Notes under the pieces: generated by a model | Told to the model about the DNA's origin: nothing | What the model saw: the letters and a program-made list of their open reading frames with translations, nothing else | The model's database searches: none | Origin: a virus | Lineage: Duplodnaviria; Heunggongvirae; Uroviricota; Caudoviricetes | Reading direction: 5' to 3' (one strand) | Length of the DNA: 41,144 nt | IMG/VR virus record: IMGVR_UViG_2579778538_000003 | Translations under genes and position numbers: made by a program | In this document: piece by piece, positions 1 through 38,000 of the stretch | Layout: each line of letters opens with the position of its first letter | Position numbering within the stretch: position 1 is the stretch's first letter

Positions 1-411
1 CAGCCGGGCAGTGATGTGATTGTCTGCGCTGAAATGGACGAACAGTGGGGCTACGTCGGTGCTAAATCACGTCAGCGCTGGCTGTTTTACGCGTATGACA
101 GGATACGGAGGACGGTTGTGGCGCACGTCTTCGGTGAACGCACTCTGGCCACACTGGAGCGTCTTCTGAGCCTGCTGTCGGCCTTTGAGGTCGTGGTATG
201 GATGACGGATGGCTGGCCGCTGTATGAATCCCGCCTGAAGGGAAAGCTGCACGTAATCAGCAAGCGTTACACTCAGCGCATTGAGCGACATAACCTGAAT
301 CTGAGACAACATCTGGCAAGGCTGGGACGGAAGTCACTGTCGTTCTCAAAATCGGTGGAGCTGCATGACAAAGTCATCGGGCATTATCTGAACATAAAAC
401 ACTATCAGTAA
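1..411 (+). CDS. insB: IS1 transposase InsB, C-terminal part (5' end outside window)
   Basis: ORF 16..411 extends in frame back to position 1 (QPGSD...); sequence recognised as IS1 InsB. Confidence 0.9.
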
Positions 412-1010: not shown

Positions 1011-1228
1011 TTAATCCCCCTTTGTTTGCGGATAAGCTCCAGATCTTGCTGGCAACTGGCGCAAGTCCGACAACCCTGAACGGCCAGGCGTCTTCGTTCA
1101 TCTATCGGATCGCCACACTCACAACAATGAGTGGCAGATACAGCCAGGTAGTTCAGGCGGCGCATTTTTATTGCTGTGTTGCGCTGTAATTCTTCTATTT
1201 CTGATGCTGAATCAATGATGTCTGCCAT
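1007..1228 (-). CDS. TraR/DksA-family C4 zinc-finger protein (lambda Orf73-like), 73 aa
   Basis: CxxC...CxxC motif (HCCECGDPIDERRRLAVQGCRTCASC), 73-aa size and position left of the Red genes, as in lambda. Confidence 0.75.
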   Translation of the reverse strand: MADIIDSASEIEELQRNTAIKMRRLNYLAVSATHCCECGDPIDERRRLAVQGCRTCASCQQDLELIRKQRGIK

Positions 1229-1326
1229 CTTTCATTAATCCCTGAACTGTTGGTTAATACGCTTGAGGGTGAATGCGAACAATAAAAAAGGAGCCTGTAG
1301 CTCCCTGATAATTTTGCTTTTCATGT

Positions 1327-1608
1327 TCATCGTTCCTTAAAGACGCCGTTTAACATGCCGATTGCCAGGCTTAAATGAGTCGGTGTGAATCCCTTCAGCG
1401 TTACCGTTTCGCGGTGCTTCTTCAGTACGCTACGGCAAATGTCATTGACGTTTTTATCCGGAAACTGCTGTCTGACTTTTTTGATTTCAGAATTAGCCTG
1501 ACGGGCAATGCTGCGAAGGGCATTTTCTTGCTGAGGTGTCACTGAACAAGCCCCATGTCGGCAAGCATAAGCACACAGAATATGAAGCCCGCTGCCAGAA
1601 AAATGCAT
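1327..1608 (-). CDS. hypothetical protein (possibly lambda orf61 equivalent; start uncertain, in-frame GTG at 1542)
   Basis: ORF in the lambda ea/orf region left of exo; weak ribosome-binding site at the first ATG. Confidence 0.35.
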   Translation of the reverse strand: MHFSGSGLHILCAYACRHGACSVTPQQENALRSIARQANSEIKKVRQQFPDKNVNDICRSVLKKHRETVTLKGFTPTHLSLAIGMLNGVFKER

Positions 1609-1618
1609 TCAGTGGTTG

Positions 1619-1810
1619 TCATACCTGGTCTCTCTCATCTGCTTCTGCTTTCGCCACCATCATTTCCAGCTTTTGTGAAAGGGATGTGGCTAACGTATGA
1701 AATTCTTCGTCTGTTTCTGCTGGTATTGGCACAAACCTGACTCCAATTTGAGCAAGGCTATGTGCCAAATCAATACTCGTTCTTAACTCAACAGGAGATG
1801 CTTTGTGCAT
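1619..1810 (-). CDS. lambda Orf63-like protein (63 aa)
   Basis: 63-aa ORF at the lambda orf63 position; sequence looks familiar as lambda Orf63 (from memory). Confidence 0.6.
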   Translation of the reverse strand: MHKASPVELRTSIDLAHSLAQIGVRFVPIPAETDEEFHTLATSLSQKLEMMVAKAEADERDQV

Positions 1811-1971
1811 ACCGCCCCCCGTTTATTATTTATCTCCTCAGCCAGCCGCTGGGCTTTCAGCGGATTTCGGATAACAGAAAGACCGTGAAATACCCAGCCT
1901 CGCTTTGTAACGGAGTAGACGAAAGTGATCGCGCCTACCCGGATATTATCGTGAGGATGGGTCATCGCCAT
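1783..1971 (-). CDS. lambda orf60a-like protein (62 aa; 60 aa if started at second ATG 1965)
   Basis: ORF overlapping orf63 and the exo stop; GGAG ribosome-binding site upstream of the ATG at 1971. Confidence 0.5.
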
Positions 1972-2642
1972 TGCTCTCCAAATACAAAACCAATTTCAGC
2001 CAGTGCTTCGTCCATTTTTTCGATGAACTCCGGCACCATCTCGTCAAAACTCGCCATGTACTTTTCATCCCGCTCAACCACGACATAATGCAGGCCTTCA
2101 CGCTTCATTCGTGGGTCATAGTTGGCAAAGTACCAGGCATCTTTTCGTGTCACCCACATGCTGTACTGCACCTGGGCCATGTAAGCCGACTTTATGGCCT
2201 CGAAACCACCGAGCCGGAACTTCATGAAATCCCGGGAGGTAAACGGGCATTTCAGCTCAAGGCCATTGCCGTCACTGCATAAACCATCGGGAGAGCAGGC
2301 GGTGCGCATACTTTCGTCGCGATAGATGATCGGGGATTCAGTAACATTCACGCCGGAAGTGAATTCAAACAGGGTTCTGGCGTCGTTCTCGTACTGTTTT
2401 CCCCACGCCAGCGCCTTAGCATTAACTTCCGGAGCCACACCGGTGCAAACCTCAGCCAGCAGGGTGTGGAAGTAGGACATTTTCATGTCAGGCCACTTCT
2501 TTCCTGAGCGGGGCTTTGCTATCACGTTGTGAACTTCTGAAGCGGTGATGACGCCGAGCCGTAATTTGTGCCATGCATCATCCCCCTGTTCGACAGCTCT
2601 CACGTCGATCCCGGTACGCTGCAGGATAATGTCCGGTGTCAT
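1962..2642 (-). CDS. exo: lambda exonuclease (Red-alpha), 226 aa
   Basis: Translation [36 protein letters not shown]... essentially identical to lambda Exo as recalled. Confidence 0.97.
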
Positions 2643-3424
2643 GCTGCCACCTTCTGCTCAGTGGCTTTCTGTTTCAGGAATCCAAGAGCTTTCACTGCTT
2701 CGGCCTGTGTCAGTTCTGACGATGCGCGAATGTCGCGGCGAAATATCTGGGAACAGAGCGGCAATAAGTCGTCATCCCATGTTTTGTCCAGGGCAATCAG
2801 CAGAGTGTTAATCTCCTGCATGGTTTCATCGTTAACCGGAGTGATGTCGCGTTCCGGCTGACGTTCCGCAGTGTATGCAGTATTTTCGACAATGCGCTCG
2901 GCTTCATCCTTGTCATAGATACCAGCAAATCCGAAGGCCAGACGGGCACACTGAATCATGGCTTTATGCCGTAACATCCGTTTGGGATGCGACTGCCACG
3001 GCCCCGTGATTTCTCTGCCTTCGCGAGTTTTGAATGGTTCGCGGCGGCATTCATCCATCCATTCGGTAACGCAGATCGGATGATTGCGGTCTTTGCGGTA
3101 AATCCGGCACGTACATGATTCATTGTCCTGCTCAAAGTCCATGCCATCAAACTGCTGGTTTTCATTGATGATGCGGGACCAGCCATCAACGCCCACCACC
3201 GGAACGATGCCGTTCTGCTTATCAGGGAAGGCGTAAATTTCTTTCGTCCACGGATTAAGGCCGTACTGGTTGGCGACGATCAGCAATGCGATGAACTGCG
3301 CATCGCTGGCATCACCTTTAAATGCCGTCTGACGAAGAGTGGTGATCAGTTCCTGTGGGTCGACAGAATCCATGCCGACACGTTCAGCCAGCTTCCCAGC
3401 CAGCGTTGCGAGTGCTGTACTCAT
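2639..3424 (-). CDS. bet: lambda Bet (Red-beta) single-strand annealing protein, 261 aa
   Basis: Translation [48 protein letters not shown]... matches lambda Bet; overlaps exo start by 4 nt. Confidence 0.97.
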
Positions 3425-3429
3425 CCGTT

Positions 3430-3726
3430 TTATACCTCTGAATCAATATCAACATGGTGGTGAGCAATGGTTTCAACCATGTACCGGATGTGTTCTGCCA
3501 TGCGCTCCTGAAACTCAACATCGTCATCAAACGCACGGGTAATGGCTTTTTTGCTGGCCCCGCAGCGTTGCAAATGATCGATGCAGAGTGATTCAAACAG
3601 GTGCTGTGGAAGACCTTTTTCCATGTCGTCTGCCAGTTCTGCCTCTTTCTCTTCACGGGCGATCTGCTGGTAGTGACGCGCCCAGCTTTGAGCCTCAAGA
3701 CGATCCTGAATGTAATAAGCGTTCAT
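3430..3726 (-). CDS. gam: Gam host RecBCD inhibitor (short GamS-length form, 98 aa)
   Basis: Translation [54 protein letters not shown]... matches lambda Gam; no in-frame upstream start for the longer form. Confidence 0.95.
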
Positions 3727-3801
3727 GGCTGAACTCCTGAAAATGGCTGTGAAAATATCGCCTGCGAAATGCCGGGCTGATTAGGTAAACAGGAAAGGGG
3801 A

Positions 3802-4092
3802 TTAGTGATTCAGGCCGTTGCCGCGTCCGTCGAGAAAAACTTCCACGAGCAAATCACGGGTATAAGTGCGCTCGATGCCGCGATGCAGATAAAGCCGTCC
3901 GCGTAAATTAGCTGATGCAGTCCAGGTACCATCTTTGTGTTTGACCAGCATTCCTGGCATGACCGCACCGCGATTAACGGTCTGCGTTCCGTAATGTTGA
4001 TGAACCATAAAAACTCCTGCCCGTAAGCTGGGCTGCTGAACATATAGAGACTTCTGCGCGTATTCAGGCGGTGGATGGCCGCCGGTTGTCAT
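3802..4092 (-). CDS. hypothetical protein in the kil/cIII position (96 aa)
   Basis: First ORF downstream of the putative pL/OL region on the leftward strand; identity not recognised; an alternative overlapping frame exists (3810..4043). Confidence 0.35.
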
Positions 4093-4261
4093 AACTAAGC
4101 CGCCTCGTTGAAGCGACTAAGGTATGAAATGTTGAGTTAATTTCAGCTGGTCACACCGACGTTCACGCGTCCGTTTCACCCCTCGCACTCCCCGAAGCCT
4201 GCTGAAATTCAAACTGCGGATCTAAGCGGTCATCGCAACGGTGAATCAGGTAGTTGCCGTA

Positions 4262-4360
4262 TCGTTGTGTTGTTGCGATGAACTTATTTAAAACTATAGT
4301 TGTTTTATCGTCAACAACAAAAGTTGTTTTATTGGTTGTTTTAGATATAACTGGTTGTAT
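4262..4360 (-). promoter_or_regulatory. putative OL/pL operator-promoter region
   Basis: Several copies of the GGTTGTT/AACAACC half-site also found at OR, including palindrome AACAACAAAAGTTGTT; possible -35 TTGACG on the minus strand. Confidence 0.45.
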
Positions 4361-4450
4361 TTAGGATGGATTTATTTTGTGACTTGAATCGCATAGCGAT
4401 AACTGAAGCGAGGTTATGGTGGTTTTTTTAACGGTGTGTGTGATGAGGGG

Positions 4451-4482
4451 AGGGCAAAAGAAAACCCGGCACGGTGACCGGG
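4451..4482 (-). terminator. rho-independent terminator on the leftward strand just downstream of the repressor gene (t_imm-like)
   Basis: Minus-strand hairpin CCCGG-TCACCGTG-CCGGG followed by TTTTCTTTTG. Confidence 0.6.
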
Positions 4483-4603
4483 ATTCTTACGCCGTTAGGT
4501 AAAGATATTATTGCGGTGGCTTAATATTACTACCTAGAGCAAAGATAGGAATTAGTTCTTTACTGAATGAGCACAATGCCCAGTTGATAATTTTTAATTG
4601 GTA

Positions 4604-5293
4604 CTACCCATGCTTCCTATATGTCTGCGGCATGCTCCCAATAACCTTACCGAAGATGAACACCCGGTTCATCTCGTCTTTCTCGATCGGGTCCCACGGT
4701 GAGTAGCTTTTGTTATCAGAGATGACCAGCAGCTTATCCTTCATCATTTGCAGGCGCTTTACATGGGCTGTGTCGTCGTACAGAAACGCATAGATACCAT
4801 CACCGTCGAAAGATTTAACTGTGATATCAACGAACAGCAGATCACCTGGTTCGATCGTTCCTGACATGCTGTCACCACGCACGTTAATGATGCGGATATT
4901 TTCCGCCTTCCTACCATCGAACATGTGACGAGCATCGTCAAACGAGTACTCAACCGAGCGTAGAACTTCTACAAACTCACGGTTGATGACTCCCGGCCCA
5001 GCACTGACTTCTATATCAAGAACGTCAATCTTGAAGTATTTGGAATGGCTGACAGTTGATTGTATTGGTTGCACTGTACTGTCTGACATATTTCCAACGC
5101 CAGAAGATAACCATTCTGCGCGCACACCCAAAGCGTTCGCGATCTCCACGATTTTAGTTGTTTGATTAGCTTTCCCTGTTTCGATTTTCTGAATAGCAGC
5201 CTGGCTAACCCCGACCAAATCCCCAAGCGCCTTTTGTGTAAGGCCTCGCGCTAATCTGGCTTCTTTAAGTCTTTCTGAGAGTGTTGTTTTCAT
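4604..5293 (-). CDS. CI-like prophage repressor (N-terminal XRE-type HTH plus C-terminal S24/LexA-like autopeptidase), 229 aa
   Basis: HTH segment LTQKALGDLVGVSQAAIQKIETGK; C-terminal GDSMSGTIEPGDLLFVD with downstream lysine as in LexA/CI; ATG at 5293 chosen because MKTTLSERLK begins the HTH domain; divergent from the cro-like gene. Confidence 0.85.
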   Translation of the reverse strand: MKTTLSERLKEARLARGLTQKALGDLVGVSQAAIQKIETGKANQTTKIVEIANALGVRAEWLSSGVGNMSDSTVQPIQSTVSHSKYFKIDVLDIEVSAGPGVINREFVEVLRSVEYSFDDARHMFDGRKAENIRIINVRGDSMSGTIEPGDLLFVDITVKSFDGDGIYAFLYDDTAHVKRLQMMKDKLLVISDNKSYSPWDPIEKDEMNRVFIFGKVIGSMPQTYRKHG

Positions 5294-5397
5294 AGTCCAA
5301 ATGTACAACCAAGGTTTTATTCCATCAAACGAAAATGGTTGTTGACTAAAAACAACCATAGTTTTAATCTTGATTCAAATTAACCACGGAGGTTGTT
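5294..5397. promoter_or_regulatory. putative OR operator/pR-pRM divergent promoter region
   Basis: 25-bp palindrome ATGGTTGTT-GACTAAA-AACAACCAT (5335-5359) with embedded TTGACT -35-like hexamer; extra GGTTGTT half-sites; GGAGG ribosome-binding site before the cro-like ATG. Confidence 0.6.
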
Positions 5398-5628
5398 ATG
5401 AACCCAGCTATCAAAACAGCGATCAATATCGTTGGTTCACAAAAGAAACTGGGCGCTGCTTGCGAAGTTTCACAGCAGGCCGTCTATAAGTGGCTTCACA
5501 ACAAAGCAAAGGTATCCCCTGAACATGTCGGCAGCATTGTTACGGCTACTGGTGGAGTAGTGAAGGCATACCAGATTCGCCCGGATCTTCCGAAGTTGTT
5601 TCCACACACCGAAAAGAACGCAGCTTAA
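5398..5628 (+). CDS. Cro-like / YdaS-like HTH regulator (76 aa)
   Basis: Small HTH protein (LGAACEVSQQAVYKWL) transcribed divergently from the repressor, immediately right of the operator region. Confidence 0.7.
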   Translation: MNPAIKTAINIVGSQKKLGAACEVSQQAVYKWLHNKAKVSPEHVGSIVTATGGVVKAYQIRPDLPKLFPHTEKNAA

Positions 5629-5697
5629 ATTTCCATTTCACGCTCTTTAACAATAAGCAATCAACTTAACAGTCAATTCAAACTAAAGGAGTCAATT

Positions 5698-6237
5698 ATG
5701 CAACCACTTACATACCAACAGACTAGCGGATTTAGCCCGACTGCGGTGATAAATCGTTCTCAAACAAAACAGGTGCCAGGCCACGAAAAAATCCGTGATG
5801 CCGTCCGCGCCTGGTCGGCTGTAGATAATCAGGATGTCGTTGCCACACTCATTGTGAATGAGTATCTGGAGCAGGGCGGCGGCACCATCGATTTCCCTGA
5901 TGATGTCAGCCGTGCACGCCAGAAGCTGTTCCGCTTCCTCGATAACAAATTCGATTCTGAAAAATACCGAAATAACGTGCGTGAACTGACCCCGGCAATT
6001 CTGGCGGTACTACCGCTGGAATATCGCGGTTACCTGGTTGAGCAGGATAGCTTCATGGCTAGGTTGGCTGAAATGGAAAAGGAACTCAGTGAGGCAAAAC
6101 AGGCTGTCATTCTCAACGCACCACGCCACCAGAAACTGAAGGAAATTAGTGAAGGTATTGTGTCGATGTTTCGTGTGGACCCAGATCTGGCTGGTCCATT
6201 GATGGCGATGGTTACTACCATGCTGGGGGCGATATGA
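5698..6237 (+). CDS. YdaT-like protein (proposed CII functional analogue), 179 aa
   Basis: Occupies the cII position between cro-like and O; motifs EYLEQGGG and TPAILAVLP resemble Rac YdaT as recalled (unverified). Confidence 0.5.
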   Translation: MQPLTYQQTSGFSPTAVINRSQTKQVPGHEKIRDAVRAWSAVDNQDVVATLIVNEYLEQGGGTIDFPDDVSRARQKLFRFLDNKFDSEKYRNNVRELTPAILAVLPLEYRGYLVEQDSFMARLAEMEKELSEAKQAVILNAPRHQKLKEISEGIVSMFRVDPDLAGPLMAMVTTMLGAI

Positions 6238-6323
6238 CAGGTTCAGAAATGGCGAAAGCCGGTCTGCTGGAACAGAACCGACTTTCAGGTGCAAATCGTA
6301 ACACACTCATTGCGGGAGGAATT

Positions 6324-7253
6324 ATGGCAAACACTGCTGAGATATTCAATTTTCCAGTGCCGGATGCGGCACAAAAGGAGCCGCGCGTGGCAGATCTCGA
6401 TGATGGTTATACGCGCATTGCAAATGAGTTGCTGGAAGCTGTGATGCTGGCCGGATTAACACAGCACCAGCTTCTGGTCTTTCTGGCTGTCATGCGCAAA
6501 ACATATGGCTTTAATAAAAAACTGGATTGGGTTAGCAACGAGCAACTTTCCGAATTAACCGGGATATTGCCGCACAAGTGTTCTGCTGCAAAAAGTGTTC
6601 TGGTAAAGCGTGGGATTTTTATTCAGAGCGGGCGGAATACCGGCATTAATAATGTGGTCAGTGAATGGTCAACATTACCCGAATCAGGTAAGAAAAATAA
6701 AGTTTACCTGAAAGAGGTAAATTTACCTGAATCAGGTAAAAAAAGTTTACCCAAATCAGGTAAAGGCGTTTACCCGAATCAGGTAAACACAAAAGACAAA
6801 CTAACAAAAGACAATATAAAACCTTTTTCGTCCGAGAATTCTGGCGAATCCTCTGACCAACCAGAAAACGATCTTCCTGTGGTGAAACCGGATGCTGCAA
6901 TTCAGAGCGGCAGCAAGTGGGGGACAGCAGAAGACCTGACCGCCGCAGAGTGGATGTTTGACATGGTGAAGACCATCGCGCCATCAGCCAGAAAACCGAA
7001 TTTTGCAGGGTGGGCTAACGATATCCGCCTGATGCGTGAACGTGACGGACGTAACCACCGCGACATGTGCGTGCTGTTCCGCTGGGCATGCCAGGACAAC
7101 TTCTGGTCCGGTAACGTGCTAAGTCCGGCCAAACTCCGCGACAAGTGGACCCAACTCGAAATCAACCGTAACAAGCAACAGGCAGGCGTGACAGCTAGCA
7201 AACCAAAACTCGACCTGACAAACACAGACTGGATTTACGGGGTGGATCTATGA
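6324..7253 (+). CDS. O: lambda-type replication initiator O (start at ATG 6324 with GGAGG ribosome-binding site; longer ORF opens at 6234)
   Basis: N-terminus MANTAEIFNFPV...VADLDDGYTRIANELLEA...RKTYGFNK parallels lambda O; C-terminus nearly identical to lambda O; ori iterons lie inside the gene. Confidence 0.85.
   Translation: MANTAEIFNFPVPDAAQKEPRVADLDDGYTRIANELLEAVMLAGLTQHQLLVFLAVMRKTYGFNKKLDWVSNEQLSELTGILPHKCSAAKSVLVKRGIFIQSGRNTGINNVVSEWSTLPESGKKNKVYLKEVNLPESGKKSLPKSGKGVYPNQVNTKDKLTKDNIKPFSSENSGESSDQPENDLPVVKPDAAIQSGSKWGTAEDLTAAEWMFDMVKTIAPSARKPNFAGWANDIRLMRERDGRNHRDMCVLFRWACQDNFWSGNVLSPAKLRDKWTQLEINRNKQQAGVTASKPKLDLTNTDWIYGVDL
6675..6785. repeat. replication origin iterons: five 17-bp palindromic repeats TTACC(C/T)(G/A/T)AA(T/A)(C/G)AGGTAA inside O, followed by an AT-rich stretch
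   Basis: Direct reading: iterons at 6675-6691, 6704-6720, 6723-6739, 6747-6763, 6769-6785; AT-rich segment 6786-6830; same architecture as lambda ori. Confidence 0.75.
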
Positions 7254-7951
7254 AAAACATCGCCGCACAGATGATTAACTTTGACCGTGAGCAGATGCGT
7301 CGGATCGCCAACAACATGCCGGAACAGTACGACGAAAAGCCGCAGGTACAGCAGGTAGCGCAGATAATCAACGGTGTATTCAGCCAGTTACTGGCAACTT
7401 TCCCGGCGAGCCTGGCTAATCGTGACCAGAACGAACTGAACGAAATCCGCCGCCAGTGGGTTCTGGCTTTCCGGGAAAACGGGATCACCACGATGGAGCA
7501 GGTGAGCGACGGAATGCGTGTTGCCCGTCGGCAGAATAGACCATTTCTGCCATCACCCGGGCAGTTTGTTGCATGGTGCCGGGAAGAAGCATCCGTTACC
7601 GCCGGGCTGCCAAACGTCAGCGAGCTGGTTGATATGGTTTACGAGTATTGCCGGAAGCGTGGTCTGTATCCGGATGCAGAGTCTTATCCGTGGAAATCAA
7701 ACGCGCACTACTGGCTGGTTACCAACCTGTATCAGAACATGCGGGCCAATGCGTTGACTGACGCGGAATTACGGCGCAAGGCTGCCGATGAACTGGCCTG
7801 TATGACCGCGCGAATTAACCGTGGTGAGGCTATACCTGAACCAGTAAAACAACTTCCTGTCATGGGCGGTAGGCCTCTAAATCGTGCACAGGCTCTGGCG
7901 AAGATCGCAGAAATCAAAGCTAAGTTCGGGCTGAAAGGAGCGATGAAATAG
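7250..7951 (+). CDS. P: lambda replication protein P (DnaB loader), 233 aa
   Basis: Translation MKNIAAQMINFDREQMRRIANNMPEQYDEKPQVQQVAQIINGVF... essentially identical to lambda P; ATG overlaps the O stop. Confidence 0.97.
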   Translation: MKNIAAQMINFDREQMRRIANNMPEQYDEKPQVQQVAQIINGVFSQLLATFPASLANRDQNELNEIRRQWVLAFRENGITTMEQVSDGMRVARRQNRPFLPSPGQFVAWCREEASVTAGLPNVSELVDMVYEYCRKRGLYPDAESYPWKSNAHYWLVTNLYQNMRANALTDAELRRKAADELACMTARINRGEAIPEPVKQLPVMGGRPLNRAQALAKIAEIKAKFGLKGAMK

Positions 7952-30075: not shown

Positions 30076-32629
30076 ACCGGTAGGCGATCTGGTCGTTGAT
30101 TTGAGTCTGGATGCGGCCAGATTTGACGAGCAGATGGCCAGAGTCAGGCGTCATTTTTCCGGTACGGAAAGTGATGCGAAAAAAACAGCGGCAGTCGTTG
30201 AACAGTCGCTGAGCCGACAGGCGCTGGCTGCACAGAAAGCGGGGATTTCCGTCGGGCAGTATAAAGCCGCCATGCGTATGCTGCCTGCACAGTTCACCGA
30301 CGTGGCCACGCAGCTTGCAGGCGGGCAAAGTCCGTGGCTGATCCTGCTGCAACAGGGGGGGCAGGTGAAGGACTCCTTCGGCGGGATGATCCCCATGTTC
30401 AGGGGGCTTGCCGGTGCGATCACCCTGCCGATGGTGGGGGCCACCTCGCTGGCGGTGGCGACCGGTGCGCTGGCGTATGCCTGGTATCAGGGCAACTCAA
30501 CCCTGTCCGATTTCAACAAAACGCTGGTCCTTTCCGGCAATCAGGCGGGTCTGACGGCAGATCGTATGCTGGTCCTGTCCAGAGCCGGGCAGGCGGCAGG
30601 GCTGACGTTTAACCAGACCAGCGAGTCACTCAGCGCACTGGTTAAGGCGGGGGTAAGCGGTGAGGCTCAGATTGCGTCCATCAGCCAGAGTGTGGCGCGT
30701 TTCTCCTCTGCATCCGGCGTGGAGGTGGACAAGGTCGCTGAAGCCTTCGGGAAGCTGACCACAGACCCGACGTCGGGGCTGACGGCGATGGCACGCCAGT
30801 TCCATAACGTGACGGCGGAGCAGATTGCGTATGTTGCTCAGTTGCAGCGTTCCGGCGATGAAGCCGGGGCATTGCAGGCGGCGAACGAGGCCGCAACGAA
30901 AGGGTTTGATGACCAGACCCGCCGCCTGAAAGAGAACATGGGCACGCTGGAGACCTGGGCAGACAGGACTGCGCGGGCATTCAAATCCATGTGGGATGCG
31001 GTGCTGGATATTGGTCGTCCTGATACCGCGCAGGAGATGCTGATTAAGGCAGAGGCTGCGTTTAAGAAAGCAGACGACATCTGGAATCTGCGCAAGGATG
31101 ATTATTTTGTTAACGATGAAGCGCGGGCGCGTTACTGGGATGATCGTGAAAAGGCCCGTCTTGCGCTTGAAGCCGCCCGAAAGAAGGCTGAACAGCAGAG
31201 TCAACAGGACAAAAATGCGCAGCAGCAGAGCGATACCGAAGCGTCACGGCTGAAATATACCGAAGAGGCGCAGAAGGCTTACGAACGGCTGCAGACGCCG
31301 CTGGAGAAATATGCCGCCCGTCAGGAAGAACTGAATAAGGCCCTGAAAGACGGAAAAATCCTGCAGGCAGATTACAACACGCTGATGGCGGCAGCGAAAA
31401 AGGACTATGAAACGACACTGAAAAAGCCGAAGCAGTCCGGCGTGAAGGTGTCTGCGGGCGATCGTCAGGAAGACAGTGCTCATGCTGCCCTGCTGACGCT
31501 TCAGGCTGAACTCCGGACGCTGGAGAAGCATGCCGGAGCAAATGAGAAAATCAGCCAGCAGCGCCGGGATTTGTGGAAGGCGGAGAGTCAGTTCGCGGTA
31601 CTGGAGGAGGCGGCGCAACGTCGCCAGCTGTCTGTACAGGAGAAATCCCTGCTGGCGCATAAAGATGAGACGCTGGAGTACAAACGCCAGCTGGCTGCAC
31701 TTGGCGACAAGGTTACGTATCAGGAGCGCCTGAACGCGCTGGCGCAGCAGGCGGATAAATTCGCACAGCAGCAACGGGCAAAACGGGCCGCCATTGATGC
31801 GAAAAGCCGGGGGCTGACTGACCGGCAGGCAGAACGGGAAGCCACGGAACAGCGCCTGAAGGAACAGTATGGCGATAATCCGCTGGCGCTGAATAACGTC
31901 ATGTCAGAGCAGAAAAAGACCTGGGCGGCTGAAGACCAGCTTCGCGGGAACTGGATGGCAGGCCTGAAGTCCGGCTGGAGTGAGTGGGAAGAGAGCGCCA
32001 CGGACAGTATGTCGCAGGTAAAAAGTGCAGCCACGCAGACCTTTGATGGTATTGCACAGAATATGGCGGCGATGCTGACCGGCAGTGAGCAGAACTGGCG
32101 CAGCTTCACCCGTTCCGTGCTGTCCATGATGACAGAAATTCTGCTTAAGCAGGCAATGGTGGGGATTGTCGGGAGTATCGGCAGCGCCATTGGCGGGGCT
32201 GTTGGTGGCGGCGCATCCGCGTCAGGCGGTACAGCCATTCAGGCCGCTGCGGCGAAATTCCATTTTGCAACCGGAGGATTTACGGGAACCGGCGGCAAAT
32301 ATGAGCCAGCGGGGATTGTTCACCGTGGTGAGTTTGTCTTCACGAAGGAGGCAACCAGCCGGATTGGCGTGGGGAATCTTTACCGGCTGATGCGCGGCTA
32401 TGCCACCGGCGGTTATGTCGGTACACCGGGCAGCATGGCAGACAGCCGGTCGCAGGCGTCCGGGACGTTTGAGCAGAATAACCATGTGGTGATTAACAAC
32501 GACGGCACGAACGGGCAGATAGGTCCGGCTGCTCTGAAGGCGGTGTATGACATGGCCCGCAAGGGTGCCCGTGATGAAATTCAGACACAGATGCGTGATG
32601 GTGGCCTGTTCTCCGGAGGTGGACGATGA
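30068..32629 (+). CDS. H: tail tape-measure protein H, 853 aa
   Basis: MAEPVGDLVVDLSLDAARFDEQMARVRRHFSGTESDAKKTAAVVEQSLSRQAL... matches lambda gpH; length equals lambda H. Confidence 0.97.
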   Translation: MAEPVGDLVVDLSLDAARFDEQMARVRRHFSGTESDAKKTAAVVEQSLSRQALAAQKAGISVGQYKAAMRMLPAQFTDVATQLAGGQSPWLILLQQGGQVKDSFGGMIPMFRGLAGAITLPMVGATSLAVATGALAYAWYQGNSTLSDFNKTLVLSGNQAGLTADRMLVLSRAGQAAGLTFNQTSESLSALVKAGVSGEAQIASISQSVARFSSASGVEVDKVAEAFGKLTTDPTSGLTAMARQFHNVTAEQIAYVAQLQRSGDEAGALQAANEAATKGFDDQTRRLKENMGTLETWADRTARAFKSMWDAVLDIGRPDTAQEMLIKAEAAFKKADDIWNLRKDDYFVNDEARARYWDDREKARLALEAARKKAEQQSQQDKNAQQQSDTEASRLKYTEEAQKAYERLQTPLEKYAARQEELNKALKDGKILQADYNTLMAAAKKDYETTLKKPKQSGVKVSAGDRQEDSAHAALLTLQAELRTLEKHAGANEKISQQRRDLWKAESQFAVLEEAAQRRQLSVQEKSLLAHKDETLEYKRQLAALGDKVTYQERLNALAQQADKFAQQQRAKRAAIDAKSRGLTDRQAEREATEQRLKEQYGDNPLALNNVMSEQKKTWAAEDQLRGNWMAGLKSGWSEWEESATDSMSQVKSAATQTFDGIAQNMAAMLTGSEQNWRSFTRSVLSMMTEILLKQAMVGIVGSIGSAIGGAVGGGASASGGTAIQAAAAKFHFATGGFTGTGGKYEPAGIVHRGEFVFTKEATSRIGVGNLYRLMRGYATGGYVGTPGSMADSRSQASGTFEQNNHVVINNDGTNGQIGPAALKAVYDMARKGARDEIQTQMRDGGLFSGGGR

Positions 32630-32955
32630 AGACCTTCCGCTGGAAAGTGAAACCCGGTATGGATGTGGCTTCGGTCCCTTCTGTAAGAAAGGTGCGCTTT
32701 GGTGATGGCTATTCTCAGCGAGCGCCTGCCGGGCTGAATGCCAACCTGAAAACGTACAGCGTGACGCTTTCTGTCCCCCGTGAGGAGGCCACGGTACTGG
32801 AGTCGTTTCTGGAAGAGCACGGGGGCTGGAAATCCTTTCTGTGGACGCCGCCTTATGAGTGGCAGCAGATAAAGGTGACCTGCGCAAAATGGTCGTCGCG
32901 GGTCAGTATGCTGCGTGTTGAGTTCAGCGCAGAGTTTGAACAGGTGGTGAACTGA
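32626..32955 (+). CDS. M: tail tip protein M, 109 aa
   Basis: MKTFRWKVKPGMDVASVPSVRKVRFGDGYSQRAPAGLNANLKTYSVTLSV... matches lambda gpM. Confidence 0.95.
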   Translation: MKTFRWKVKPGMDVASVPSVRKVRFGDGYSQRAPAGLNANLKTYSVTLSVPREEATVLESFLEEHGGWKSFLWTPPYEWQQIKVTCAKWSSRVSMLRVEFSAEFEQVVN

Positions 32956-33653
32956 TGCAGGATATCCGGCAGGAAACACTGAATGAATGCACCCGTGCGG
33001 AGCAGTCGGCCAGCGTGGTGCTCTGGGAAATCGACCTGACAGAGGTCGGTGGAGAACGTTATTTTTTCTGTAATGAGCAGAACGAAAAAGGTGAGCCGGT
33101 CACCTGGCAGGGGCGACAGTATCAGCCGTATCCCATTCAGGGGAGCGGTTTTGAACTGAATGGCAAAGGCACCAGTACGCGCCCCACGCTGACGGTTTCT
33201 AACCTGTACGGTATGGTCACCGGGATGGCGGAAGATCTGCAGAGTCTGGTCGGCGGAACGGTGGTCCGGCGTAAGGTTTACGCCCGTTTTCTGGATGCGG
33301 TGAACTTCGTCAACGGAAACAGTTATGCCGATCCGGAGCAGGAGGTGATCAGCCGCTGGCGCATTGAGCAGTGCAGCGAACTGAGCGCGGTGAGTGCCTC
33401 CTTTGTACTGTCCACGCCGACGGAAACGGATGGCGCTGTTTTTCCGGGACGTATCATGCTGGCCAACACCTGCACCTGGACCTATCGCGGTGACGAGTGC
33501 GGTTATAGCGGTCCGGCTGTCGCGGATGAATATGACCAGCCAACGTCCGATATCACGAAGGATAAATGCAGCAAATGCCTGAGCGGTTGTAAGTTCCGCA
33601 ATAACGTCGGCAACTTTGGCGGCTTCCTTTCCATTAACAAACTTTCGCAGTAA
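32955..33653 (+). CDS. L: tail tip protein L, 232 aa
   Basis: MQDIRQETLNECTRAEQSASVVLWEIDLTEVGGERYFFCNEQNEKGEPVTWQGRQYQPYP... matches lambda gpL. Confidence 0.95.
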   Translation: MQDIRQETLNECTRAEQSASVVLWEIDLTEVGGERYFFCNEQNEKGEPVTWQGRQYQPYPIQGSGFELNGKGTSTRPTLTVSNLYGMVTGMAEDLQSLVGGTVVRRKVYARFLDAVNFVNGNSYADPEQEVISRWRIEQCSELSAVSASFVLSTPTETDGAVFPGRIMLANTCTWTYRGDECGYSGPAVADEYDQPTSDITKDKCSKCLSGCKFRNNVGNFGGFLSINKLSQ

Positions 33654-35000: not shown

Positions 35001-38000
35001 ATGGGTAAAGGCAGCAGTAAGGGGCATACCCCGCGCGAAGCGAAGGACAACCTGAAGTCCACGCAGCTGCTGAGTGTGATCGATGCCATCAGCGAAGGGC
35101 CGGTTGAAGGTCCGGTGGATGGATTAAAAAGCGTGCTGCTGAACAGTACGCCGGTGCTGGACAGTGAGGGGAATACCAATATATCCGGCGTCACGGTGGT
35201 GTTCCGGGCCGGTGAGCAGGAGCAGTCACCGCCGGAGGGATTTGAATCCTCCGGCTCCGAGACGGTGCTGGGTACGGAAGTGAAATATGACACGCCGATC
35301 ACCCGGACCATCACGTCGGCAAACATCGACCGTCTGCGCTTTACCTTCGGTGTACAGGCACTGGTGGAAACCACCTCAAAGGGAGACAGGAATCCGTCGG
35401 AAGTTCGCCTGCTGGTTCAGATACAGCGTAACGGTGGCTGGGTGACGGAAAAAGACATCACCATTAAGGGCAAAACCACCTCGCAGTATCTGGCCTCGGT
35501 GGTGGTGGATAACCTGCCGCCGCGCCCGTTTAATATCCGGATGCGCAGGATGACGCCGGACAGCACCACAGACCAGCTGCTGAACAAAACGCTCTGGTCG
35601 TCATACACCGAAATCATCGATGTGAAACAGTGCTACCCGAACACGGCACTGGTTGGCGTGCAGGTGGACTCGGAGCAGTTCGGCAGCCAGCAGGTGAGCC
35701 GTAATTATCATCTTCGCGGGCGCATTCTGCAGGTGCCGTCGAACTATAACCCGCAGACGCGGCAATACAGCGGTATCTGGGACGGAACGTTAAAACCGGC
35801 ATACAGCAACAACATGGCCTGGTGTCTGTGGGATATGCTGACCCATCCGCGCTACGGCATGGGGAAACGTCTTGGTGCGGCGGATGTGGATAAATGGGCG
35901 CTGTATGTCATCGGCCAGTACTGCGACCAGTCGGTGCCGGACGGCTTTGGCGGCACGGAGCCGCGCATTACCTGTAATGCGTACCTGACCACACAGCGCA
36001 AGGCGTGGGATGTGCTCAGTGATTTCTGCTCGGCGATGCGCTGTATGCCGGTATGGAACGGGCAGACGCTGACGTTCGTGCAGGACCGACCATCAGATAA
36101 GGTGTGGACCTATAACCGCAGTAATGTGGTGATGCCGGATGATGGCGCGCCGTTCCGCTACAGCTTCAGCGCCCTGAAGGACCGCCATAATGCCGTTGAG
36201 GTGAACTGGATTGACCCGGATAACGGCTGGGAGACGGCGACAGAGCTCGTGGAGGATACGCAGGCCATTGCCCGTTACGGCCGTAACGTCACGAAGATGG
36301 ATGCCTTTGGCTGTACCAGCCGGGGGCAGGCACACCGCGCCGGGCTGTGGCTGATTAAAACGGAGCTGCTGGAAACGCAGACCGTGGACTTCAGCGTGGG
36401 TGCTGAAGGGCTTCGCCATGTACCGGGGGATGTCATTGAAATCTGCGATGATGACTATGCCGGTATCAGCACCGGTGGTCGTGTGCTGGCGGTGAACAGC
36501 CAGACCCGGACGCTGACGCTCGACCGTGAAATCACGCTGCCATCCTCCGGTACCACGCTGATAAGCCTGGTTGACGGAAGTGGCAATCCGGTCAGCGTGG
36601 AGGTTCAGTCCGTCACCGACGGCGTGAAGGTGAAAGTGAGCCGTGTTCCTGACGGTGTTGCTGAATACAGCGTATGGGGGCTGAAGCTGCCGACGCTGCG
36701 CCAGCGACTGTTCCGCTGCGTGAGTATCCGTGAAAACGACGACGGCACGTATGCCATCACCGCCGTGCAGCATGTGCCGGAAAAAGAGACCATCGTGGAT
36801 AACGGGGCGCACTTTGACGGCGAACAGAGTGGCACGGTGAATGGTGTCACGCCGCCCGCGGTGCAGCACCTGACCGCAGAAGTCACCGCAGACAGCGGGG
36901 AATATCAGGTGCTGGCGCGATGGGACACACCGAAGGTGGTGAAGGGGGTGAGCTTTATGCTTCGCCTGACCGTGGCAGCGGATGACGGCAGTGAGCGGCT
37001 GGTCAGCACGGCCAGGACGACGGAAACCACATACCGCTTCAGGCAACTGGCGCTGGGGAACTACAGGCTGACAGTCCGGGCGGTAAATGCGTGGGGGCAG
37101 CAGGGGGATCCGGCGTCGGTATCGTTCCGGATTGCCGCACCGGCAGCGCCATCGCGGATTGAGCTGACGCCGGGCTATTTTCAGATAACCGCAACGCCGC
37201 ATCTTGCCGTTTATGATCCGACGGTACAGTTTGAGTTCTGGTTCTCGGAAAAGCGGATTGCGGATATCAGGCAGGTTGAAGCCAGCGCGCGTTATCTTGG
37301 TACGGCGCTGTACTGGATAGCCGCCAGTATCAATATCAAACCGGGCCATGATTATTATTTTTACATTCGCAGTGTGAACACCGTTGGCAAATCGGCATTT
37401 GTGGAGGCTGTTGGCCAGCCGAGTGATGATGCATCCGGCTATCTGGATTTTTTCAAAGGAGAGATAGGGAAAACCCATCTGGCTCAGGAGTTGTGGACGC
37501 AGATTGATAACGGTCAGCTTGCGCCTGACCTGGCTGAAATCAGGACGTCCATTACGGATGTCAGCAATGAAATCACGCAGACCGTCAATAAGAAACTGGA
37601 AGACCAGAGTGCAGCGATCCAGCAGATACAGAAGGTTCAGGTTGATACAAATAATAACCTGAACAGCATGTGGGCTGTGAAGCTGCAGCAGATGCAGGAC
37701 GGACGCCTTTATATCGCGGGTATTGGTGCCGGTATTGAGAATACCCCTGACGGTATGCAGAGTCAGGTGCTGCTGGCGGCGGACAGGATTGCGATGATTA
37801 ATCCTGCGAATGGCAATACAAAGCCGATGTTTGTTGGGCAGGGCGATCAGATATTCATGAACGAAGTGTTCCTGAAATATCTGACGGCTCCCACCATTAC
37901 CAGCGGTGGCAATCCCCCAACGTTTTCACTGACACCTGATGGTCGACTTTCTGCGAGAAATGCGGATATCAGCGGTAACGTGAATGCGAACTCCGGGACG

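Follow-up and report, generated by a model that had tools for sequence, protein, structure and literature searches.

How is the leftward early operon of a lambda-like prophage expressed when no N gene lies between its leftward promoter (PL) and its recombination genes? The question is raised by IMG/VR record IMGVR_UViG_2579778538_000003, a 41,144-nucleotide stretch of DNA (hereafter the window) that is a lambda/DLP12-like Escherichia coli prophage. A first reading made from its sequence alone had listed three options, namely no antitermination, an RNA-based mechanism or a factor encoded elsewhere, and had chosen none of them. We found that the PL leader of the window consists of two conserved RNA modules, E1 and then E2. 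We tentatively propose that E1 serves the PL operon as a new antitermination RNA acting in cis, analogous in function to the put RNAs but unrelated to them. The RNA-based option is therefore favoured, because the leader is conserved and structured and is an exact replacement of putL in related loci.

E1 is a conserved non-coding RNA at the start of the PL transcript

Isolated phages near-identical to the window prophage are PhiR34_1, Turner and PhiR47_2, and heteroimmune ones are 4A7, 4C10 and Perceval. On the minus strand of the window, PL has a −35 element TTGACG (4314-4309), a 17-nt spacer and a −10 element TTAAAT (4291-4286), and its transcript probably starts at A4279. In the heteroimmune relatives the operators differ, and identity with the window begins exactly at (A/G)TCGCAAC, 7 nt upstream of which lies a −10 element of their own; this supports such a start. 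The coordinates of E1 and of the other features are collected in Table 1.

E1 is present in 2210 of 5426 complete E. coli genomes (~40%). RefSeq annotation over the element is missing in all but one of the 40 matches listed, and in 16 phage records E1 is either unannotated or absorbed into over-long 'Kil' open reading frame (ORF) calls. Most copies are more than 95% identical. A second, divergent clade is about 82% identical and comprises IMG/VR locus L199, detected with nhmmer, and 14 loci detected by a pattern scan. E1 starts at the inferred PL +1 behind at least 10 operator types, at least three of them in the window's clade and at least seven in the divergent clade. As for further clades, scanning the GTDB species genomes for the exact core turned up a single chance match, in an Acidobacteriota metagenome-assembled genome, and two relaxed 16-nt probes of IMG/VR gave chance matches only. 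An Rfam scan of 3400-6400 at E ≤ 10 returned best matches of E ≥ 1, to unrelated microRNA, ctRNA and similar families. To judge from Rfam, the matched phage records, the listed RefSeq matches and the searchable literature, E1 is probably undescribed, and we found no account of antitermination in this phage group in that literature.

E1 is non-coding. Its sole ORF is also the only additional ORF of at least 30 aa on the minus strand of 4604-3802, a 31-aa frame with a TTG start (4212-4117, RLRGVRGVKRTRERRCDQLK) that lacks a Shine-Dalgarno sequence (SD) and matches nothing in Pfam, PHROG or NCBIfam. We considered this Arg-rich peptide as a miniature N protein and rejected it. It has neither SD nor ATG, its stop varies (TAG in just 14 of 55 variants), indels of 5 nt and 1 nt shift its frame, and an early UGA interrupts it in the divergent clade.

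The core of E1 is predicted to fold into two stem-loops

The secondary structure of E1 was modeled with RNAalifold on 49 unique sequences, and pairs were counted explicitly in 46. In the resulting model, pairs 4228-4226/4186-4184 of stem-loop I enclose helix P2 (4219-4210/4201-4192; loop AAUUUCAG), and pairs 4181-4180/4150-4149 of stem-loop II enclose 4174-4169/4160-4155. We found 98.6% of cells paired under this model, compared with 24-37% in slid controls. Three pairs differ in a compensatory way between the two clades (A-U to C-G, G-C to A-U and A-U to G-C), several one-sided changes are compatible with G-U pairing, and the positions that vary most are unpaired. Across both clades, the strands CGGGGAGUGCGAGGGGUG and GUGUGACC are near-invariant, the first differing at one position in 3 of the 46 sequences, and the conserved joining strands are purine-rich. 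An initial fold, made of helix A (4279-4272/4239-4232) and a long helix B, was rejected, as the divergent clade disrupts helix A and no variation at all is seen in helix B; the two-stem-loop model is better supported.

E1 occupies the slot of putL and boxA-like signals

To our knowledge, the put RNAs of HK022 and related phages are essentially the only family known to mediate processive antitermination in phages by RNA and without a protein. Like put of HK022 and HK639, E1 would be a cis-acting non-coding RNA near the PL start of an N-less lambdoid phage, with a core of about 80-90 nt, two stem-loops with bulges, and conserved purine-rich strands. Put RNA causes terminator readthrough in cis, and this is blocked by mutations in the zinc-binding domain of the RNA polymerase β′ subunit (PMC9378689). 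In our comparison, the invariant put motifs GAACG, GUCGG, GGCGGG and CAAU are all missing from the E1 of the window.

We then compared the two RNAs with covariance models. The put model (R1) was built from eight RNAs, namely putL and putR of HK022 and those of HK639, phiEt88, CobraSix, UPF_BP1, S9-5 and PdC23, and stem II of these RNAs covaries well. R1 scored putL, putR and the put of IMG/VR locus L143 at 53-98 bits and gave nothing in 4000-4290 of the window; its best matches in the window (8.7 bits) lie elsewhere. Since the put model scores nothing in the leader, E1 is not a member of the put family, and the part of the RNA-based option that looked to a put-like element in that sense does not stand. 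A likeness visible by eye between UCGGGGAGUGCGAGGGGU and put UCGGGAGCGCGGCGGGU (CGGGCAAUGG in the divergent clade) was likewise rejected as homology, because the put model misses the leader.

PL transcripts of the divergent clade open with a 47-55-nt leader (AUCGAAACGAAACAUCGACAGCUGAGCGAAGUUAGCCAGCGGCG), the first 44-52 nt of which are 96-100% identical in phi80, HK225, HK639, CobraSix, ENT1 and KO-TP1. The PL transcripts of HK639 and L199 have their first 55 nt in common (2 mismatches), as well as a 38-nt block downstream; between these flanks, HK639 has an 85-nt putL segment (annotated 'putL-like antiterminator RNA'), whereas L199 has a 105-nt E1 segment. Similarly, loci L143 and L214 have the leftward operators (OL), PL and the first ~60 nt of the transcript in common, followed by putL and E1, respectively. 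L143 continues from putL to E2, as the window does from E1 to E2. In a census of the slot in 130 loci with the shared leader, we counted about 76 boxA-like sequences (UGCUUUUUAACAA or UGCUCAUUAA), about 42 put RNAs, 11 copies of E1 and one unrelated occupant. E1 is the third occupant of a slot whose two characterised occupants are cis-acting antitermination signals.

The phi80/HK225-type leaders have E2 and a KilR-type kil in common with the window, and the 5' leader in common with the divergent E1 clade. In place of the E1 of the window, they carry the boxA-like UGCUUUUUAACAA, genes (including phi80 'N') and intrinsic terminators ahead of E2.

Two further observations concern early-left regions. 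The leader AUCGAAACGAAACAUCGACAGCUGAGCGAAGUUAGCCAGCGGCG, seen in L004-L007, L013, L014, L199 and L214, is kept whatever antitermination signal comes next. In L214, a 47-nt early-left stretch (11308-11354) matches positions 237-283 of 16S ribosomal RNA (rRNA) at 32 bits (E = 3e-7) and may either mimic an rRNA helix or be a fragment that was captured.

A proposed mechanism and the points against it

In the mechanism that we propose, the PL transcript would begin at about 4279 with E1, whose core (4228-4149) would fold into two adjacent stem-loops. Nascent E1 would stay with its own RNA polymerase, like put of HK022 and HK639, and the E1-bound polymerase would turn resistant to intrinsic termination, Rho-dependent termination or both. 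The leftward operon (kil, gam, bet and exo, and on through lambda-type terminators toward xis and int) would then be expressed without N protein. We infer both the antitermination activity of E1 and its RNA polymerase target. E1 would be a separate RNA family that fills the role of put with no homology to it, and E2 a separate downstream module that would control translation at the kil leader. It is also possible, though we hold this with some doubt, that E1 represents a second, evolutionarily independent class of polymerase-modifying antiterminator RNA, unrelated to put in sequence and fold, carried by prophages of about 40% of complete E. coli genomes, and that recombination can exchange it for putL or for boxA/N-type nut signals at one PL-leader slot.

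Several observations weigh against this proposal. The covariation of E1 is modest, with two clades only and about three compensatory events. A competing helix (4208-4198/4150-4139) is invariant and might be an alternative conformer, and the folding energy of the whole leader is not unusual (z = −0.55). The E1 covariance model (R2) scores nothing on put, which together with the null result of R1 speaks against any relation beyond functional analogy. HK022 has a second put downstream of the rightward promoter PR (putR), whereas no second E1 was found in the window by blastn-short, nhmmer or R2: with filters off, R2 scored the single copy at 115.7 bits and the next match, inside the adhesin gene, at 10.4 bits. 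R2 gave no E1 copy downstream of PR in the window, and none elsewhere in PhiR34_1. Mosaic junctions could also place unrelated modules in the same slot by chance. Finally, no strong terminator separates PL from exo in the window, so that expression of the Red genes alone may need neither E1 nor antitermination.

Leftward terminators, E2 and the leader of kil

In lambda, PL transcripts must pass the exo-distal terminators to express xis and int. The PL transcripts of this prophage would presumably have to do the same, as the lambda hairpin distal to exo is also present in the window; PhiR34_1 has the lambda-type terminator plus another one just after exo. Between its E1 and kil/gam/recT, L199 carries two canonical intrinsic terminators (7627-7611 and 6734-6717), and the ORFs of this interval encode an HNH endonuclease and small unknown proteins, none of them N-like.

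The first leftward gene of the window is kil. The ORF 3802-4092 matches profiles of the KilR/Kil family over their full length, namely phrog_294 (1.2e-38) and NCBIfam PRK11354 (4e-17, under the curated cut-off, aligned to residues 29-96), and relatives annotate Kil. The NCBIfam alignment begins at residue 29 and the PHROG alignment at about residue 20, and the ATG at 4008 is preceded by a good SD (AGGAG). Because kil starts at 4008 and not at 4092, the untranslated leader is about 270 nt long, and the sequence-only reading, which had counted about 170 bp before the first leftward ORF, needs correction. We rejected an N-terminal extension of Kil from 4092 as protein: the profiles begin at about residue 29, the conserved stretch changes at non-synonymous and not at synonymous sites, GAAGUCU downstream is kept in three frames, and the ends of the upstream ORF (uORF) vary by phage.

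The region in question contains E2. Base pairing of CAUA with UAUG buries the AUG of the uORF, and a GAGG SD is buried in the upper 3' arm; the uORF itself starts with MTTGGHPPP, a polyproline stall motif. E2 covaries, its fold being kept by at least seven different stem sequences. The 23 nt after the hairpin are invariant in nucleotides while the length and frame of the uORF vary among phages, so E2 is an RNA-level element, and its GCGCAGAAGUCU is conserved in three reading frames. E2 is common to the window, phi80, HK225, and Klebsiella and Enterobacter phages; in those phages a gene and an intrinsic terminator come before it, and kil or another gene comes after it. To judge from these sequences, E2 seems to be a regulatory leader, so far undescribed, in front of kil in many lambdoid phages of enterobacteria.

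E2 was also seen in L005, L006, L013, L014 and about 190 IMG/VR loci. The early-left operons of many IMG/VR loci (for example L014, L153, L187 and L205) are built of gene cassettes. Each combines a conserved pre-ORF linker (...CCCGCAUCAGCGGGUAAC...GAGGG...AUG; KAFLPHQRVTTEGK in ORF lists), a variable gene and one of two recurring intrinsic terminators, GCCGCCUAACCAGCGGCUUUUUU or GACCCGCUCCGGCGGGUUUUUU.

The main rival explanation does without processive antitermination. In it, E1 and E2 would together form a long 5' untranslated region for the stability, the translation or both of the toxic kil and later genes, for example through a 5' structure that protects the transcript, a site for processing by RNase III/E or gating by a uORF; few terminators would lie in the leftward operon, and xis and int would be expressed from their own promoter. 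We consider this unlikely. In its favour, E2 is clearly translational, with SD and AUG buried in a covarying hairpin, and it directly precedes kil in many phages. The absence of a strong terminator between PL and exo in the window, and the single copy of E1, confined to PL, are also in line with it. However, phages without E1 have E2 alone before kil, implying that E1 is not needed there. The divergent clade has its E1 1.9 kb upstream of E2/kil, with two terminators in between, and unrelated genes follow this E1. Moreover, this explanation leaves the exact swap of E1 with putL or boxA-type elements unexplained.

The left side lacks N and nut signals, and a boxA follows cro on the right

The PL leader of the window has the same genome position as nutL and N of lambda, between PL/OL and the recombination genes. 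It differs from the lambda region, in which an N protein of about 100 aa with an N-terminal arginine-rich motif (ARM) is encoded shortly after PL, in that the window has no N gene, no ARM protein and no boxA/boxB in the PL leader. We found no N-sized ORF on either strand between PL and the Red genes. This bears out the sequence-only reading, in which no N-like ORF had been seen on either strand; only the non-conserved 31-aa TTG ORF remains. There is no conserved small N- or Nun-like ORF, and the ORF 3802-4092, which had been considered as a possible antiterminator, is Kil. N is also absent from the three complete related phage genomes inspected (PhiR34_1, PhiR47_2 and 4A7). Q is the only annotated antiterminator in the whole genome of PhiR34_1, and no ARM-type or N-like ORF was found in this phage or in the early region of the window. 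On the minus strand, the PL leader has no boxA within 2 mismatches and, in its sequence or predicted fold, no boxB-type hairpin (5-bp stem, GNRA-like pentaloop). A search for boxA/boxB or put-like stem-loops, which the same reading had proposed for the leader, thus gave no boxA, no boxB and no match to the put model.

On the right, a perfect boxA lies just after cro, as in lambda nutR; unlike in lambda, no boxB follows. It is the window's only boxA match within 2 mismatches and agrees in 12 of 13 bases with the rrn boxA consensus (TGCTCTTTAACAA). The 45 nt after it are AT-rich and unstructured (minimum free energy −5.2 kcal/mol, z = 0.13). This boxA may give rrn-like, Nus-factor-dependent protection against Rho to the PR operon. 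It is restricted to the immunity type of the window, and the heteroimmune 4A7 has a different hairpin at this place. As for an rrn-type boxA/Nus system, the boxA of the window lies on the rightward operon only, is absent from E1-carrying heteroimmune relatives, and leaves the leftward operon unexplained.

In the rightward operon of HK639, the record of that phage annotates an 'M3-like RNA' just after the cII-like gene (L229 1011-1070, corresponding to HK639 37910-37969). By the covariance models used, this RNA is related neither to put nor to E1. Since ydaT overlaps O, the window leaves no space for an element of this kind.

These results bear on a protein-mediated alternative, as in N/nut or rrn boxA, in which E1 would be a nut-like site recruiting a trans factor that has gone unrecognised, such as a small phage protein that has escaped annotation, a protein supplied by a co-resident prophage, or the Nus factors of the host. 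We regard it as improbable. A boxA-like sequence is the commonest occupant of the slot of E1, the perfect boxA after cro suggests that Nus factors are probably used on the right, and related phages have several small early ORFs without a known function, all of which would fit. But E1 has no boxA within 2 mismatches, and the window early region and PhiR34_1 offer no ARM-type or N-like ORF as a partner. E1 is joined to many early gene sets, no partner gene travelling along, and 4A7 carries E1 yet has no boxA after cro.

It is very improbable that E1 is a non-functional remnant (e.g., of a deleted N/nut region) hitch-hiking with a successful prophage lineage: the high identity of most copies does indicate largely recent spread, and the chance Arg-rich ORF could hint at a decayed gene, but the two clades keep the core and compensate stem changes, variation avoids the paired positions, E1 has kept its +1 position downstream of 10 or more unrelated operator sets, and it has no similarity to the N regions of lambda, phi80 or HK225.

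Immunity region

The ORF 4604-5359 on the minus strand matches Pfam HTH_3 (6.5e-13) and Peptidase_S24 (1.5e-18), as well as phrog_4 and phrog_6201, confirming the S24-peptidase CI-like repressor of the sequence-only reading. Its start is likely the ATG at 5293, which gives a protein of the same length as the cI annotated in PhiR47_2. The repressor fits the CI/LexA type, with an N-terminal helix-turn-helix (HTH) and a C-terminal S24 domain, and is divergent from cro across operators that are repeated at OL. The repetition of an operator half-site at the rightward operators (OR) and at OL, which had also been read from the sequence, holds for GTTGTT/AACAAC: 8 copies occur in the 237 bp of OL (4250-4375) and OR (5290-5400), against 0.19 expected from the window-wide frequency. 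The 7-mer GGTTGTT on its own is not enriched window-wide (6 against 5.5 expected), and four of the six copies lie within 4334-5397. OR contains a perfect 9-7-9 palindrome.

The terminator-like hairpin seen leftward of the repressor proved to be an intrinsic terminator (4482-4465, minus strand). It is conserved in PhiR34_1, PhiR47_2 and 4A7, where it closes cI or cI-GevT-GevA; in PhiR47_2 and 4A7, a toxin-antitoxin pair is inserted between cI and this conserved terminator. A toxin-antitoxin or defence pair lies at the same place in L002 (3790-5218) and L003 (3785-5201), annotated as GevT/GevA in one record and as an ASCH domain plus a hypothetical protein in the other. The window has merely ~120 bp between cI and the terminator. 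In lambda, rexAB sits after cI, the position taken by the pair in these relatives. Besides, a plus-strand promoter-like site (4273-4300, TTGCGA-16-TATAGT) overlaps PL face to face and is directed at cI; it might give an antisense or OL-proximal transcript.

Layout of the prophage

The Red genes are not lambda-identical, as had been stated, but lie in a block with 96.6% identity to lambda over 2793 nt (lambda 30402-33193 against window 1017-3808). Lambda O/P and window 6787-7941 are 94.9% identical. The kil-cIII-ea10-ral-sieB-N-nutL region of lambda (~2.4 kb) gives way to about 0.47 kb in the window. Right of the IS1 ORF, no int, xis or attL sequence is apparent, and the left arm of the prophage may be truncated at this ORF.

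Between P and the nin genes lies an inserted island (8201-13546) with an adhesin and a convergent esterase. The adhesin is a 1421-aa inverse autotransporter of the intimin/invasin type with IAT_beta and Big_1/Invasin_D3 domains and three near-identical repeats of ~119 aa; the esterase (12503-13546, minus strand) is of the BD-FAE/Abhydrolase_3 type. A strong bidirectional terminator (12478-12498) parts the two genes and sits between PR/P and Q.

Table 1. Positions of the main features in the window
Feature	Position	Strand	Remarks
IS1 fragment, transposase ORF (DDE_Tnp_IS1)	16-411		Left end of window
Lambda-like block (gam, bet, exo, orf60a/63/61)	1017-3808	-	96.6% identity to lambda
Intrinsic terminator distal to exo	1288-1306	-	Same hairpin in lambda
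exo	1962-2642		Lambda-type leftward gene
bet	2639-3424		Lambda-type leftward gene
gam	3430-3726		Lambda-type leftward gene
kil, KilR-type FtsZ inhibitor, 68 aa	3802-4008	-	PHROG and NCBIfam profiles
E2	~4040-4129	-	Hairpin 4126-4090 (CAUA...UAUG), then invariant ACAACCGGCGGCCAUCCACCGCC and GCGCAGAAGUCU
E1, conserved non-coding ~150-nt leader RNA	4130-4279	-	Core 4228-4149, two stem-loops (predicted)
OL operators and PL	4285-4364	-	Sequence reading
Intrinsic terminator of cI (PRM) transcript	4465-4482	-	CCCGGTCACCGTGCCGGG-TTTTCTTTT
CI-like repressor, 229 aa	4604-5293	-	HTH and S24 autopeptidase; start likely
OR region with PRM/PR	5294-5397	.	GGTTGTT/AACAACC-based operators, including palindrome 5335-5359
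Cro analogue, YdaS family	5398-5628	+	Pfam YdaS_toxin 4e-17, P22_Cro 8e-5
Perfect boxA GCTCTTTAACAA	5642-5653	+	14 nt after cro stop, nutR position
YdaT-type CII analogue	5698-6237	+	Followed by O and P
Q	15395-16084		Rightward, beyond adhesin island and nin genes

Implications

If E1 acts as we propose, the reprogramming of bacterial RNA polymerase by nascent RNAs would have arisen more than once, and E1 would add a second structure to comparisons of the ways in which RNA suppresses pausing and termination. It would also explain how recombination and excision genes are expressed in the very common N-less DLP12/lambda-like prophages of E. coli. Nature has exchanged boxA, put and E1 for one another at a single position of the leader, and this natural three-way experiment makes the hypothesis directly testable. 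Even if E1 were merely a regulatory 5' untranslated region, it would be an unannotated structured RNA in thousands of sequenced E. coli genomes.

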